DNA from: an uncultured Oscillibacter sp.
GTDB lineage: Bacteria > Bacillota > Clostridia > Oscillospirales > Oscillospiraceae
Direction of reading: 5' to 3'
DNA: 64,000 nucleotides
Assembly: GCA_900544615.1 (NCBI GenBank)
Contig: UQVS01000001.1
Span: 22,998-86,997 of the forward strand
Shown here: positions 2,890 through 56,604 of the stretch, in pieces
Numbering within the stretch: the stretch's first letter is position 1
Layout: the number at the start of each line of letters is the position of its first letter
The notes under the pieces: generated by a model
Databases searched by the model: none
Told to the model about the DNA's origin: nothing
The model's input: the letters and a program-made list of their open reading frames with translations, nothing else
Translations under genes and position numbers: made by a program

Positions 2890-3125
2890 ACACGCACAGC
2901 GCTGGCCCGCCGCTCTGCGGCGGGCAGGAAGACTCGTCCAGCTTCAGGACGGCCAGGAATGCCTCCGTGGGCATCTGCACCTCGTCGTCGCAAAGTCCGC
3001 TGCATTCCGTTTCTGCCTTACGGCAAAAACTTCATCTGCTCCCTTGCTCCTCCGTTTCCCACCGAAACCGCTTGCGCTGAGTTTCGGCGGGAACCCTGTT
3101 ATGCGCGCATCTTCTTTTTGCCTTT
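2890..3125 (-). repeat. degenerate tandem pseudo-copy of the lepA 3' end plus ~45 nt of downstream flank, interrupted by a 119-bp hairpin-containing insert
   Basis: 2938-2980 is 42/43 identical to 3224-3266 (lepA last codons). 3101-3124 matches 3277-3300. 2893-2937 is ~80% identical to 3166-3212. Confidence 0.75.
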
Positions 3126-3215
3126 TGAAAACGCTCCGCGTTTCAAAAGCTGATTGAAATAACGGCGCACAGCGCCGGCTCGCCGCTTTGCGGCTCGTAG
3201 GAAGGCAAAAAGAGA

Positions 3216-5021
3216 TTATTCATCCAGCTTGAGGACGGCCAGGAATGCCTCCGTGGGCATCTGCACGGTACCCAGAGCGCGCATCTTCTTTTTGCCTTCC
3301 TTCTGCTTTTCCAGCAGCTTCTTCTTGCGGGTGACGTCACCGCCGTAGCACTTGGCCAGCACGTCCTTCCGCATGGCCTTGACCGTCTCGCGGGCGATGA
3401 CCCGGCCGCCGATGGCCGCCTGAATGGGGATTTCAAAGAGCTGGCGGGGGATGTTCTCCTTCAGCTTTTCACAAAGCCGCCGGGCGCGGGGATAGGCCTT
3501 GTCCCGGTGGGCAATGAAGCTGAGGGCGTCCACCTGATCGCCATTGAGAAGCAGGTCTACTTTCACAAGATCGCTGGGCCGGTAGCCGGACAGCTCATAG
3601 TCCAAAGAGGCGTATCCCTTGGTGTTGGCCTTCAGGGCGTCAAAAAAGTCGTAGATGATCTCGTTCAGGGGCATCTGGTAATGCAGCTCCACCAGATGGG
3701 TATCCAGATACTGCATATCCTTGAATTCGCCCCGGCGATCCTGACACATGGGCATGATATTGCCCACATACTCGTTGGGGGCGATGATATTCACCTTGAC
3801 ATACGGTTCCTCCGCCCGCTCAATAACCGAGGGATCCGGGTAGTTGTGGGGGTTATCCACTGTCACCATGTCGCCGTTGGTTTTATAGACATGGTAGATA
3901 ACGGAGGGCAGGGTCGTGACCAGATCCAGATCGAATTCCCGTTCCAGCCGCTCCTGAATGACCTCCATATGGAGCATTCCCAGAAAGCCGCAGCGGAAGC
4001 CAAAGCCCAGCGCGGCAGAGGATTCCGGCTCAAAGCTCAGGGACGCGTCGTTGAGCTGGAGCTTTTCCAGCGCATCCCGCAGATCGGGGTACTTGGAACC
4101 GTCCTCCGTGTAGATACCGCAGTAGACCATGGACTGCACGGGGCGATAGCCCGGCAGCGGCTCCGCCGTAGGCGCTTCCGCGTCGGTGACGGTATCGCCC
4201 ACCCGCGTATCGCTGACGGTCTTGATGGAGGCGGTGAAATAGCCCACCTCGCCGGCTTCCAGCGCATCACAGGGTTCCAGTCCCAACGGCAGCAGGTGGC
4301 CGCATTCCACCACCTGATAGGATGCGCCGGTGGCCATCATTTTGATGGTCTGGCCGGTGCGGATCGTGCCTTCCATAATGCGGAAATACACCACAACGCC
4401 CCGGTAGCTGTCGTACTGGCTGTCGAATACCAGCGCTTTCAGCGGCGCTTTGGGATCCCCCTTGGGGGCGGGGATATTCTGCACGATGTCCTCCAGCACG
4501 GCTTCAATGTTGATGCCCATTTTGGCGGAGATCTCCGGGGCGTCCATGGCGGGCAGGCCGATGATGTCCTCCACCTCCTGCTTGGCCTTCTGGGGATCGG
4601 CGGCAGGGAGGTCGATCTTGTTGAACACCGGCAGGATCTCCAAATCGTGCTCCATGGCAAGGTAGGTATTGGCCAGCGTCTGCGCCTCCACGCCCTGCGT
4701 GGAGTCCACCACCAGCACAGCGCCCTCGCAGGCAGCCAGAGAGCGGGAAACCTCATAGTTGAAGTCCACATGGCCCGGCGTGTCAATCAGATTCAGCTCA
4801 TAGACCTCTCCATCCTGCGCCTTGTAGTTCAGCTTCACGGCGCGGGCCTTGATGGTGATGCCCCGTTCCCGCTCCAGATCCATGTTGTCCAGCAGCTGGT
4901 TTTCCATCTGGCGCTGGGAGACCGCCCCGCACTGTTCCAGCAGCCGGTCCGCCAGGGTGGACTTGCCGTGGTCAATGTGGGCGATGATGGAAAAATTGCG
5001 GATATTGCTTTGTTTCGTCAT
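3216..5021 (-). CDS. lepA: elongation factor 4 (LepA)
   Basis: [28 protein letters not shown] with GTPase motifs and the LepA C-terminal domain. The start was moved to MTKQ (RBS GGAGG 9 nt upstream) rather than the longer track ORF. Confidence 0.95.
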
Positions 5022-5089
5022 ACAGATAAAACCTCCGTAGGCAGATCCACGCGAATCCCGCATGGCGCAAATTTCAATTGGATCGCGGC

Positions 5090-6169
5090 TTATGACGCCG
5101 CGGTATGGAACTGAATCCAGTAGTTTTCGTCCCAGAATTTATCATAGTCGTAGTTTACCACAAAATCCCGCCAGTTGGCGAGAATTTCCTGATAATTTTC
5201 CGCCGTCAGCAGGTCTGCGCCGGAGCGGATCTTGTCCAGCACCAGTTCTCCCGCCTCGGCAGAGTGATGCACATAGTCGCAGTAGTAATCCAGCTGTTCG
5301 ATGATCTCCCGGTCAAAGAGCAGCCCGTGGAGGGTGATATTCTCATAGGGCAGCAGCGTCTCGCAGGCCAGCTTCAGTGCGGCAAATACCGCGTCCGTCT
5401 CGCCCGTGCGGCCGATCTTGTCCCAGTAGAGAATACTGTAGGGGGAGAGGAAGAGATCAAACTCCACATCCGGGTACGTCTCCGCCCAGCGGGTCACTAC
5501 CGCCAGATTCTTCGCGGTATCCGCCAGCAGGCCGTCCTCCGGCATCTTCTCTGCCGCAATGTCGGGACGCTGATACTCCTCCAGCGCCGTCATGTGATTC
5601 CACCAGACGGTGTTATCCCAGGAAAACCCCTCATCCAGCGTTTCCCCCTGCCCCCAGCGCTGGCACATGAGGGCATAGAGGCTGTAGTAAAGAACGTCCT
5701 TATTCAGCAGGTATTTCGCATCGTTGACGGGGTTCGCGTCATAGAGATAGCCGGGCATAGCCCCGGTCACGCCGTCCGGCGAGCGGGTGAAAATGTTGGT
5801 ATCCATGGCGAAGATGACCCGCTTGGGCCTGTGCGTCCGCATGAGAAGCCCCATCACCTGATCGAACTCGCTGAAGTAGCCGTCCGGGATGGTAAGGCGC
5901 AGGCCGGTTCCGCCGAATACCTCGCCGATCTCGCTGCCCCGGTAGTTGGCCGCCATGGAGGAACCGATAAGAACCACGTCCGCCGGGTTGTTTCGGACGA
6001 TTCCGGCCGTCTGATAACGCTCGCTGAAAAAGACCGGCTTGCGGTCTGCGGGCATCCGATAGTAAAAGCAGGGATCTACCCGCCAGACAAAGGCGGCGCA
6101 GGCCACCAGCACCAGAATCAGCCCCAGAAGCAGGCCCAAAGTCCATTTACGATAGGTATGCTGTTCCAC
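5090..6169 (-). CDS. DHHW/DltD-like (SGNH-fold) partner protein of the MBOAT acyltransferase
   Basis: N-terminal TM anchor and a 359-aa extracytoplasmic domain, sitting immediately downstream of the MBOAT gene (16-nt gap). GTG start with RBS GAGAGGAGA. The family assignment rests on synteny and general composition, not on a strict motif. Confidence 0.6.
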
Positions 6170-6185
6170 GGCAGGGTCTCCTCTC

Positions 6186-54946: not shown

Positions 54947-54958
54947 GGAGATTCAGAA

Positions 54959-55153
54959 ATGAAAAGAATCATCTATTATGTATGGGCGATTCTTGTACTT
55001 TTTTCTGTTGCTCTTGGTATTGTTGGCTTGGTCATGCAAAAGAATTACAATCCGGCAGGCGATACCGTATCAATCATCTCTGATGTGATCTTTTATGCTG
55101 CAATTATTTGCTATATAGCATGGAAAATCATAGGAAAGAAGAAACCGTCATGA
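54959..55153 (+). CDS. low-GC 64-aa two-TM membrane protein inserted between dnaN and yaaA
   Basis: RBS AAGGAG 7 nt upstream. Its stop overlaps the yaaA ATG. GC content is in the mid-30s by eye. Confidence 0.55.
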
Positions 55154-55365
55154 AAACAATGACCATTACAACGGAATACATCAAGCTTCAGGATCTTCTG
55201 AAGCTGGCCAACGCCGTGGAGACCGGCGGCGAAGCAAAGGAGTGCATCCAGAGCGGCGAGGTGCTGGTAAACGGCGAGGTCTGCACCATGCGGGGAAAGA
55301 AGATCCACCCCGGCGATACGGTGACCTTCCAAAATCAGGAATACGCGGCAGCTTATGCGGATTGA
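55150..55365 (+). CDS. yaaA: S4-domain RNA-binding protein YaaA (RlbA)
   Basis: A 71-aa S4-like sequence [55 protein letters not shown] in the conserved position between dnaN and recF. Confidence 0.8.
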
Positions 55366-56455
55366 CGCATTAAGTCTGGACTTCTTCCGCAATTACGTCC
55401 ATCTGGACGCCGCTTTTGATCCCAATATCAATGTAATCTATGGCGACAACGCCCAGGGAAAGACCAATCTGCTGGAAGCGGTGGCGTATCTTTCTGGCGT
55501 CAGCCACCGGGCAAGGTATGATAAGGAGCTGATCCAGTTCGGCGTAGACCACGCCTTTCTGAAAAGCAGTGTGTTTTCGCGGGAACGGACCTTTCTGCTG
55601 GAAGCGGAACTGCACAGGGGCGCCCGGCGGGTGCTGCGCTCCAACGGCGTGAAGCTGAAAAACAGCGGCGAACTCAGCGGTATTTTTCAAAGCGTGCTGT
55701 TCTGCCCGGAGGATCTGTACCTGATCCGGGAGGGGGCGGCGGCCCGGCGGGGCTTTCTGGACGACTGCATCTGCCAGCTGCGGCCCCGGTATGCGCTGGC
55801 GCTGGCGGAATACAGGCGGCTTCATGAGCATAAGACCCGCATCCTGCGGGACAGCGAAGAAAAACCCTCTCTGCTGGACACACTGGACGAATTTTCACTG
55901 GGCATGGCGAAGGCGGGAGCGCTGCTGATCCATTACCGCGCCCATTTCATCAAGCGGCTGTGTCAGGCGGCTCCTGCCATTCACGGAGATTTCTCCGGCG
56001 GCCGGGAGCAGCTGACGCTGAAATACGAAACCGTGTCTACGGTGACTGACCCGGAAGCGGGGCCGCAGGTGATTTTCCAGCAGCTTTTGCAGCATCAGGA
56101 GAGCCACCGGGCGGCGGAGATCGCCAGCCGGCAGTGTCTGTCCGGCCCTCACAAGGATGATTTGCTGGTGGAAATCGACGGACGGGCTGCCAAGAGCTTT
56201 GCATCTCAGGGGCAGACCCGGACTGCGGCGCTTTCCCTGAAGCTGGCGGCGCGGGAAATCTTTCAGCAGGATACCGGCGAGTACCCGGTATTGCTGCTGG
56301 ACGACGTGCTTTCCGAGCTGGACCCCCGGCGGCAGGAATTCGTGCTGAACCGCATTCGGGGCGGGCAGGTATTCATCACCTGCTGCGAGGATGACCGGCT
56401 GCCGCAGCTATTAGGCGGAAGAATTTTTCATATTAAGGATGGCACTGTTCGGTGA
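55355..56455 (+). CDS. recF: DNA replication/repair protein RecF
   Basis: Walker [14 protein letters not shown], an SMC-like signature and Walker B LLLLDD. Confidence 0.95.
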
Positions 56456-56520
56456 TGAATACCGCGACGGAGCGCAGCGAACGGAGCAGCGCGTTTTCAA
56501 TCGCCGCGCCGTTACGCGGC

Positions 56521-56604
56521 GCATCACCTGCTGTGAGAATGATTGTCTGCCAGCAGATGCTGGGCGGGAAAATCTTCCATATCAGGAATGACGCTGTACA
56601 ATGA
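56521..56604 (+). repeat. frameshifted pseudo-copy (~75% identity) of the last ~27 codons of recF
   Basis: CACCTGCTGTGAGAATGA...GGGCGGGAAAATCTTCCATATCAGGAATGACGCTGTACAATGA aligns with recF 56371-56455 ([26 protein letters not shown] versus ITCCEND...IFHIRNDAVQ, with a 1-nt indel). Confidence 0.75.

Follow-up and report, generated by a model that had tools for sequence, protein, structure and literature searches.

A 64-kb stretch of DNA from an uncultured Oscillibacter sp. (the whole stretch analysed, hereafter the window) raises a key question: why are three of its housekeeping genes, lepA, glyQS and recF, each followed by a degenerate second copy of their own 3' end? The first-pass annotation, in which this pattern was noticed, left two explanations side by side: frequent small tandem duplications, or elements that bring a replacement 3' end with them and leave the displaced original behind as a fossil. 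The comparisons presented here lead to the second explanation in a particular form. We think it rather probable that the three loci are members of one small (~60-150 nt), protein-less and strand-specifically folded family, which we refer to as E, and that this family spreads as a guided gene-end cassette.

Duplicated gene ends in the window

The window was searched for direct repeats by blastn self-comparison and with a repeat finder, and gene identities were assigned by NCBIfam (TIGR01393 for lepA, NF003211 for glycine-tRNA ligase and TIGR00611 for recF). Only three significant short-range direct repeats were found, and they are located at the 3' ends of lepA, glyQS and recF. At all three loci, the true stop codon lies inside the first copy, and the second copy follows 148-286 nt downstream. 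Three of three repeats at gene 3' ends within 64 kb cannot be ascribed to chance; therefore, the observation stands. The recurrent duplication described at the outset was borne out, and its dimensions had to be corrected. The spacer, given as 70-150 bp, is not uniformly of this size but amounts to 66 nt at recF, 142 nt at glyQS and ~185 nt at lepA. A copy of the gene end is present at each locus, but at lepA the repeat extends past the stop codon by ~50 non-coding nt, and the downstream copy there is not a simple one, as it is itself split by a further 122-nt insert (2981-3102).

The canonical arrangement is found at glyQS (coding sequence, CDS, 46935..48377, minus strand), where 46927-46994 and 46717-46784 are 96% identical over 68 nt; all features of this locus lie on the minus strand. 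The gene-proximal repeat copy (DR1, 46927..46994) consists of the functional last 60 nt with the stop codon and 8 nt beyond. Farther downstream lies a short guide, CGCACCTGC (46908..46916), which is the exact 9-nt reverse complement of a target, GCAGGTGCG (46987..46995), straddling the DR1 start. The element itself (46786..46902) begins with hairpin H1 (46886-46900), 7 nt 3' of the guide, and continues with Hc (46858-46883, invariant), H2 (46829-46858) and H3 (46784-46815); it is matched by covariance model R1 (see below) with 103.7 bits (E-value 1.5e-23) and is missing from the empty allele L012. H3 leads directly into the distal copy (DR2, 46717..46784), a displaced native-like gene end, and the native terminator comes next. 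When the RNA of the locus was folded with RNAfold, the guide:target helix and all four hairpins were predicted (z=-6.6).

Filled and empty alleles and the origin of the two copies

Did the DNA between the copies arise in place, or did it arrive from elsewhere? Alleles were compared in human-gut metagenome contigs coding for the identical protein (L-numbers denote the compared stretches). At glyQS, filled alleles were found in L011 and L013-L017, and empty ones in L012 and at four similar places. The empty alleles are shorter by exactly 210 bp, that is, by one repeat copy plus 142 nt without a counterpart there. The cassette spacer that follows the glyQS stop codon is kept between the window and L046; the native flanks of the two differ. 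At lepA, the window, L001, L003, L004, L005 and L010 are filled, and L002 and L006-L009 are empty and shorter by exactly 286 bp. The insertion is hence present or absent among conspecific strains at both genes, and it always leaves the gene intact, since the gene-proximal copy is complete. The expectation that the inserts would be polymorphic in related strains thus held for lepA and glyQS but not for recF, whose structure is the same in all ten contigs inspected. Frequent small tandem duplications do not account for these data, since 142-286 bp of DNA, to which nothing at the locus corresponds, are missing from the empty alleles and since the inserted DNA belongs to an element family known from more than 100 other genomes.

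The lepA locus (CDS 3216..5063, minus strand) is more complicated. Here 3166-3266 and 2893-2980 are 78% identical with gaps, and a 47-nt core (3220-3266 versus 2934-2980) is 96% identical. In gene sense, the order is coding target, DR1 (gene end with stop codon, guide, H0 and H1), Hc-like hairpin and second copy, all on the minus strand. The target GGAAGGCAAAAAGAAGA (3284..3300) lies within the coding region. DR1 (3166..3266) comprises the last 50 nt with the stop codon (3216-3266), and the guide, an extra hairpin H0, and H1 are contained within the repeated unit. The guide TCTCTTTTTGCCTTCC (3200..3215), a 14-nt exact complement to the target, is located directly 3' of the stop codon. The divergent E core (3122..3197), with H0 at 3177-3197, H1 at 3164-3176 and the Hc-like hairpin at 3122-3149, is missing from the empty alleles L006-L009, and the covariance model matches 3055-3178 as a divergent full-length copy (22.3 bits, E-value 5e-4). 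The start of the second copy, X' GGCAAAAAGAAGATGCGCGC (3103..3122), falls where the guide rule described below predicts, opening with GGCAAAAAG from 3122 downward. After 20 nt it is broken by the 122-nt secondary insert (2981..3102), which opens with an H3-type hairpin. The rest of the second copy (2893..2980) includes the fossil 3' end (2933-2980), with the GACGAG end seen in most empty alleles, and fossil H0'/H1' hairpins (2904-2924).

Which of the two lepA copies is the newcomer can be read from their endings. The gene-proximal copy ends in GATGAATAA in all filled alleles, on at least three haplotype backgrounds, while the distal copy of the filled alleles retains the GACGAGTAA ending of most empty alleles. 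Therefore, the insert brought the proximal copy along, and the original end, now displaced, survives as the distal copy. The codon positions of the mismatches were compared across the family. In 48 family members, mismatches between DR1 and DR2 are distributed 24:17:96 over codon positions 1:2:3, and the two copies in L035, for example, read ALVGQLEE* and AIAGEVEE*. This third-position bias means that both copies diverged as coding sequence in different lineages rather than by free local decay. Usually the repeat goes no farther than the stop codon, since donor and recipient can be aligned in the coding part only. The lepA endings, the codon-position bias and the polymorphism together support the proposal that elements bring a replacement 3' end and leave the original as a fossil.

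Two further observations concern lepA. About 10-60 nt past the stop codon, the 'empty' alleles L006-L009 carry a guide, GGCTTTTTGCCTTCC, that complements lepA coding sequence, together with H0 and a degenerate H1. As they already hold this guide-H0-H1 remnant, these alleles possibly reverted via recombination between the repeats; they look like revertants, or like a state with the element but without the duplicate, rather than virgin sites. The secondary insert, for its part, shares 82% identity over 60 nt with intergenic DNA of L029 (3835-3892) that sits between a primase-like open reading frame (ORF) and the mobC/relaxase genes of a mobilizable element. It may be a second small element family, or a module resembling an origin of transfer (oriT) or a single-strand origin (sso).

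The E family

A further question is whether the three inserts are related to each other at all. Compared directly, they yield a single weak match, a 23-nt hairpin common to lepA and glyQS. Their kinship becomes clear because of the family alignment and the covariance model and not through plain sequence similarity, so that the expected mutual relationship holds for architecture and covariance model. The glyQS insert core was revealed as a repeated element by four gut-virome scaffolds labelled 'UNVERIFIED Bacteriophage sp.'. An exact-pattern scan with CAAGCGTTTTGCGNAGNAAAACCTTG, limited to one genome per species, then provided the family sample, and the repeat family anticipated elsewhere was found, with at least 138 copies in at least 120 Oscillospiraceae stretches. 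All family counts of copies, sites, repeats and guides are drawn from the copies among the matches listed. E is a structured element of ~120-150 nt without an ORF and with the hairpins H1, Hc, H2 and H3; divergent or shortened relatives of it are found in the lepA and recF inserts. Nearly all carriers among the matches listed are Oscillospiraceae (Oscillibacter, Flavonifractor, Pseudoflavonifractor, Dysosmobacter, Lawsonibacter, Vescimonas and others), and the family appears to be restricted to this group. Carriers include Flavonifractor plautii ATCC 29863, Pseudoflavonifractor capillosus ATCC 29799, Oscillibacter valericigenes and strain CCNA10.

An alignment of 64 copies, from which covariance model R1 was built and then run on the window, shows H1, the invariant Hc (CAAGcGTTTTGC-GNA-GCAAAAC-CTTG), H2 with a UUCAY loop, an A-rich linker, and GGGGY followed by H3. 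The sequences of H1, H2 and H3 vary among copies, while their pairing is maintained. In this alignment, 91.6% of the cells are paired, versus 78.6% in shuffles, and 299 cells are changed on both sides of a pair. A single H3 pair is doubly changed in up to 40 of the 64 sequences, one H3 pair is G.U in 38 of 64, and even Hc has compensatory variants in copies found by the covariance model. The sense strand folds more stably than the antisense strand in 56 of 64 copies (p=2e-10), with 66 G.U against 23 A.C. The stability of the sense strand and the G.U excess indicate that selection has acted on the fold of one strand, be it RNA or single-stranded DNA.

Flanking direct repeats were recognised on both sides in 76 of the 99 analysable copies, with lengths of 33-217 nt (median 69). 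These 76 instances represent at least 46 different sites, mostly in conserved housekeeping genes as judged from the flank sequences (lepA, infB, glyQS, era, tuf, metK, uvrB, mutS-like and others). The two sides of the element are not equivalent: the DR2 start is sharply fixed right after H3, and the DR1 end is variable, 20-80 nt before H1. Coding sequence adjoins DR1 on its upstream side in 66 of 72 cases, non-coding sequence lies beyond DR2, and the reverse arrangement hardly occurs (about 2 cases). Gene and element have the same sense in 55 of 66 cases, in which the 3' end of the gene is duplicated. The targets, taken at first for gene 3' ends, are indeed so in most cases but include 5' ends: in the other 11 of 66, the element is antisense and the ribosome-binding site with the gene 5' end is duplicated, as at the lepA 5' end in several genera and at truB in Vescimonas. 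Among the 3'-end cases, DR1 ends between -6 and +2 nt from the stop codon in 31 of 56, and the repeat covers the last 37-94 coding nt. One site may be occupied in several genera, with E lineages clustering by site, and tandem arrays of the type [gene end-spacer-guide-E] x 2 occur at at least 10 loci.

One E copy was found in IMG/VR, and the glyQS element gave one match in PLSDB, on an 861-kb Vescimonas chromid; the lepA insert had no plasmid match. A plasmid origin was rejected on these results. A phage origin was rejected as well, the 'UNVERIFIED Bacteriophage sp.' scaffolds matched by blastn being fragments of bacterial chromosome with tRNA, prfC and lepA. The gut-virome 'phage' records L028-L031 (MT838705, MT839225, MT837775 and MT838853) carry tRNA genes, prfC, lepA and a relaxase module, that is, bacterial or mobile-element DNA.

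The Vescimonas match belongs to the closed isolate replicon pMM35_01 of Vescimonas fastidiosa (NZ_AP023416.1, 861 kb), which has one copy at the 3' end of infB and another at the 5' end of truB; both have guides and repeats, and Hc has compensatory variants. This 'plasmid' carries infB, nusA, era, dnaB, dnaK, groEL, ribosomal protein genes and others; it is not a plasmid but a chromid or second chromosome. At its truB 5' end (L158 19840-20330), the cassette spacer gives truB a new Shine-Dalgarno sequence; natively, truB is translationally coupled to an upstream DHH gene.

Two kinds of related sequence were seen outside this scheme. An E variant without H3 forms tandem arrays with a 102-130-nt period beside the terminators of convergent tRNA genes (L028 1-200, L030 400-720, L132, L033 and L050); around its copies the flanking repeats are merely ~22 nt long, and a guide could not be recognised. 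[quoted passage not shown]

A guide for each copy

What determines the point at which the second copy begins? In E sense, each copy is laid out as gene body, DR1, 0-60 nt of spacer, a guide of 8-17 nt (median 13), H0/H1-Hc-H2-linker-H3, DR2 and native flank. The guide is present in every well-preserved copy, directly 5' of H1 or of H0. It is the exact reverse complement, with almost no mismatches, of the stretch of gene lying at about -5 to +8 relative to the DR2 start; thus, H3 and DR2 meet midway along the guide:target duplex. An exact complement of at least 9 nt to the DR1 start region was found in 34 of 59 own pairs, as opposed to 11 of 506 permuted pairs, and in 43 of 59 copies a longer complement exists to the DR1 context than to the DR2 context. 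All three loci of the window follow this rule, with exact complements of 9 nt (glyQS), 14 nt (lepA) and 13 nt (recF) at the predicted place.

The rule bears most heavily on recF (CDS 55355..56455, plus strand), since the insert there escaped detection by the covariance model and its assignment to E is made only by the guide rule and motif similarity. The repeat copies at recF, 56374-56455 and 56522-56604, are 73% identical over 83 nt. DR1 (56374..56455) is the functional last 82 nt including the stop codon. The guide GGTGATGAATACC (56451..56463), which overlaps the stop codon, complements 13 of 13 nt of the target GGTATTCATCACC (56368..56380). A short E-like remnant follows (56464..56521), with an H0-type segment of GGAGCG direct repeats, GCGTTTTCAA and a hairpin at 56502-56521. 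DR2 (56522..56604) opens with CATCACC and is a fossil 3' end, decayed and with an indel of 1 nt; it codes for a RecF-like C-terminus, QMLGGKIFHIRN.., of a type found in other Oscillibacter lineages. All these features lie on the plus strand. Beyond the contigs in which it is uniform, the structure is absent from L153 and L155 (86-87% RecF identity) and present in L157 (92%). In L157, the target GGTGTTTATCACC has two synonymous changes and the guide GGTGATAAACACC two compensating ones, and DR2 starts with TATCACC. Such covariation of guide and target across species was likewise found in the infB and hisS-like site sets.

A small ORF for 51 hydrophobic amino acids follows the fossil recF copy (56624-56777, plus strand). 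Its ATG is ATA in most related contigs, in which a 58-amino-acid ORF starting upstream, inside the fossil copy, is called instead.

The guide is the only part of E related to the target, as no target-derived sequence was found in H1, H2 or H3. Mismatches in the guide:target duplex are few, and G.U wobble is not enriched in it. No fixed cleavage distance from either guide end was observed, the offsets ranging over -9..0 and +4..+14. Spacers match only orthologous sites and H0 motifs and give no sign of being transduced flanks of a parent copy. The sharp, perfect Watson-Crick pairing of the guides and the covariation of guide, target and second-copy start point either to guides copied from the target as template or to pairing under strong selection.

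Alternative explanations

Could a more conventional process have produced these structures? A host-beneficial 3' untranslated region (UTR) RNA has several features on its side. If E were a stabiliser or processing signal of the mRNA, with a regulatory guide helix and a duplicate end formed as a by-product of homologous recombination, one could understand the strand-specific fold rich in G.U, the co-orientation of 83% of the copies with the upstream gene, the compensatory guide and target changes even at the old recF copy, the grouping of E lineages by target gene across genera, and a lepA E core that differs at one of ~150 nt between two alleles with ~30% difference at synonymous sites. Function alone, however, does not predict that the junction of H3 with the second copy lies precisely inside the guide:target duplex in dozens of unrelated genes; moreover, 17% of the copies run antisense to their neighbour gene, essential genes of one species may be with or without the element, and tandem arrays exist. 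We consider this explanation unlikely, and the following one quite unlikely. IS1634 and IS1549 make long target duplications of variable length, and E could be a non-autonomous transposon of the MITE type (miniature inverted-repeat transposable element), inserted through similar staggered cuts 40-110 bp apart, with those insertions surviving whose duplication spans the gene end. The variable-length direct repeats (33-217 nt) around a conserved element and the high copy number confined to one bacterial family are as expected from a MITE. Yet symmetric duplication followed by selection predicts both gene-body orientations, and 66 were seen of one against about 2 of the other. The guide of each copy and its covariation, the third-codon-position mismatch bias and the ending of the repeat at the stop codon are also left unexplained, and there are neither terminal inverted repeats nor a transposase adjoining any copy.

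The displaced fossil ends recall genomic islands and prophages, since integration into gene 3' ends yields a replacement end and a displaced fossil, and the secondary lepA insert resembles an intergenic segment of a mobilizable element coding for MobC and relaxase. The loci might accordingly be scars of integrase-mediated insertions with a gene-end copy at the attachment (att) site, mostly deleted since. This is very improbable: the same ~120-150-nt hairpin element is present at at least 46 sites, no integrase or island remnant adjoins the copies inspected, IMG/VR and PLSDB each gave a single match (the latter on a chromid), and the guide rule is foreign to att-site biology. Replication slippage at hairpins, assembly artefacts or the template and variable repeats of a diversity-generating retroelement (DGR) deserve hardly any credence. 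Hairpin-rich spacers with short direct repeats are typical substrates of slippage, and DGR variable regions, too, lie at gene 3' ends. The spacer DNA, though, is wholly missing from empty alleles; identical structures recur in many independent metagenome assemblies and the same kind is present in a closed isolate replicon, which disposes of the assembly artefact that the first-pass annotation had named as a possible refutation; and the differences between copies have no adenine bias, being mostly two-way transitions, with no reverse transcriptase nearby. Slippage, artefact and DGR are thus refuted by the empty alleles, the independent assemblies and the substitution spectrum, respectively.

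A proposed guided gene-end cassette

How might a guided cassette spread? The spreading unit would be the cassette [gene end + spacer + guide + E]. Its sense strand, either as RNA (the 3' UTR of the gene's own mRNA in 83% of cases) or as single-stranded DNA, would pair through the guide with an allele of the same gene, and its 3' end would be joined to the target inside the duplex by an enzyme acting in trans. The upstream side would be resolved by homology with the carried gene end, a one-ended process like linear group II intron retrohoming, R2 or DGR cDNA. A naive allele would be converted in this way into [replacement end]-E-[displaced native end], and an allele that already has E would become a tandem array. 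The strict asymmetry of the architecture would follow, because the replacement end lies 5' of E.

Several points weigh against this proposal. No enzyme was found, the ORFs around 23 repeat-less copies being ordinary housekeeping genes. The mechanism is inferred from anatomy and comparative data alone, with no transcript, cDNA or excision product observed. Each guide is unique to its site, and colonising at least 46 sites would need an extra guide-generating or guide-correcting step. Plain homologous recombination between strains could also spread filled alleles, and the lepA haplotypes fit both processes. In 11 of 66 cases, E and the gene beside it have opposite sense, so that the 3' UTR of an mRNA is not a general vehicle. 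The recF copy is fixed and old (73% identity between copies) and may hence be immobile. Finally, the density of copies is uneven, with two or three in this 64-kb window and only 2 strong ones in 240 kb of the Vescimonas replicon. Several single-event mechanisms were weighed on theoretical grounds: fold-back or copy-back synthesis, hairpin-capped ends opened off-centre, primer-sized inverted segments and flap ligation during Okazaki fragment maturation each account for part of the anatomy, and none accounts for all of it.

Comparison with known systems

Is E a known element under another name? At the gathering threshold, Rfam release 15 detected only a T-box leader and a tRNA in the window, and the lepA and glyQS insert regions gave chance-level matches at E-values up to 10, with no match to HEARO or another omega-RNA. 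Full-text literature searches, among them some with the Hc sequence itself, returned no description of the element.

Group II and group I introns share with E an RNA guide that pairs across the insertion point, allele-to-allele spread at a cognate site and co-conversion of the flanking exon; in linear-intron pathways, the 3' junction is precise and the 5' junction is resolved by host repair or homology. Group II introns, however, have domain V/VI, a 5' GUGYG and usually a reverse transcriptase, whereas E has four simple hairpins and no reverse transcriptase in its flanks. Group I introns have the P3-P7/P3-P9 core, a U.G pair at the 5' splice site and a terminal G, whereas the E junction is Watson-Crick paired and the tail after H3 is variable (C, AGT, AAT). 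Since insertion of E duplicates the downstream 'exon' and leaves the gene intact, splicing is not needed.

Among guided transposons, IS200/IS605 and the palindrome-associated transposable elements (PATE) resemble E in their strand-specific hairpins, in a sequence 5' of the hairpin foot that pairs in cis with the upstream junction site, and in choosing their target by pairing; protein-less miniature derivatives of IS200/IS605 exist. Their guides are 4-5 nt long and identical in all copies, whereas those of E are 8-17 nt long and unique to each copy, and they insert 3' of a conserved tetra- or pentanucleotide without a duplication or gene end, in contrast to the long duplications of E. No TnpA, TnpB or IscB was found near the E copies inspected. 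The bridge (seek) RNAs of IS110/IS1111 are likewise structured non-coding RNAs of ~100-200 nt whose programmable guides straddle the recombination point. They are, however, encoded inside a 1.2-1.5-kb insertion sequence beside a DEDD recombinase, have separate target and donor loops with guides that are the same in all copies, and make no long duplication. In the case of E, no recombinase adjoins the copies inspected, and only one segment is target-related.

The carried gene end, with the displaced original left as a direct repeat, is shared with the islands, prophages and integrative and conjugative elements of tRNA or housekeeping 3' ends and with the eukaryotic Dada transposons. These measure kilobases, have an integrase or transposase, and repeat an att core; the DNA between the E repeats measures 66-185 nt in the window and contains no ORF. 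Elements using target-primed reverse transcription (R2, and the long and short interspersed elements LINE and SINE), as well as IS1634/IS1549, have long variable duplications, a precise 3' and a variable 5' side, or non-autonomous RNAs mobilised in trans, but no guide complementary to the target and no comparable asymmetry or xenolog signature. To our knowledge, there is no SINE-like system in bacteria. REP sequences and bacterial interspersed mosaic elements (BIME), Correia, RUP and BOX are, like E, abundant, clade-restricted, hairpin-rich, non-coding and situated near gene ends; they lack a guide for each copy, a duplicated gene end, and a 100-nt multi-hairpin structure with an invariant central hairpin. 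A classical MITE has terminal inverted repeats and a short duplication of fixed length, neither of which was found in E, with its repeats of 33-217 nt. DGR activity gives adenine-specific differences next to a reverse transcriptase, unlike the differences between E copies (T>C 59, A>G 51, G>A 36, C>T 35), which have no reverse transcriptase in their flanks. We rate the E family as a new kind of element, with a mechanism proposed from anatomy and comparative data. Whether it also represents a new class of nucleic-acid-guided mobile element, a ~140-nt RNA or single-stranded DNA with a ~13-nt cis guide that would be re-templated for each target, a carried gene end and a host or trans-acting enzyme, is a more doubtful matter, and we put it forward tentatively.

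Genomic setting of the window

RecF homologues carry the names Oscillibacter or Ruminococcaceae, and the matching contigs are of human-gut metagenome origin; the window is therefore ascribed to a gut bacterium of the Oscillospiraceae. The genes dnaA, dnaN, a small S4-domain gene, recF, gyrB and gyrA follow each other at 52074-62528, an order from which it follows that the window includes the chromosomal origin region. The lepA, glyQS and recF elements are all directed away from this region and co-oriented with their genes. The GC skew of the window is uninformative on the direction of replication, and the lepA 5'-end copies argue against a simple replication-strand rule for E. The T-box leader (RF00230, 106.6 bits) lies upstream of glyQS (48465-48670, minus strand) and represents ordinary tRNA-ligase regulation. 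The sole tRNA gene of the window is tRNA-Ala (CGC) at 39633-39708 (plus strand). Weak covariance-model matches (15-19 bits) at 24103-24199 (minus strand), 2823-2923 (minus strand) and 32745-32971 may be degenerate elements or mere GC-rich terminator hairpins.

Implications

If the guide truly sets the junction, E would be a very small natural and programmable system for guide-directed DNA insertion. Even if the mechanism is conventional, the hundreds of compensatory changes and the strand-specific fold make E a well-supported new structured non-coding element that merits an Rfam-type description. Its copies are a source of annotation errors in the form of pseudo 3' and 5' gene fragments. Through them, essential genes (lepA, infB, glyQS, tuf, era, metK, recF and others) of abundant human-gut Oscillospiraceae have ends with a hidden structural polymorphism, which would be of use as a source of strain markers. 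For the family itself, E would exemplify a selfish element that is harmless in conserved coding sequence by bringing its own gene end, so that conserved genes would become its landing pads across species.

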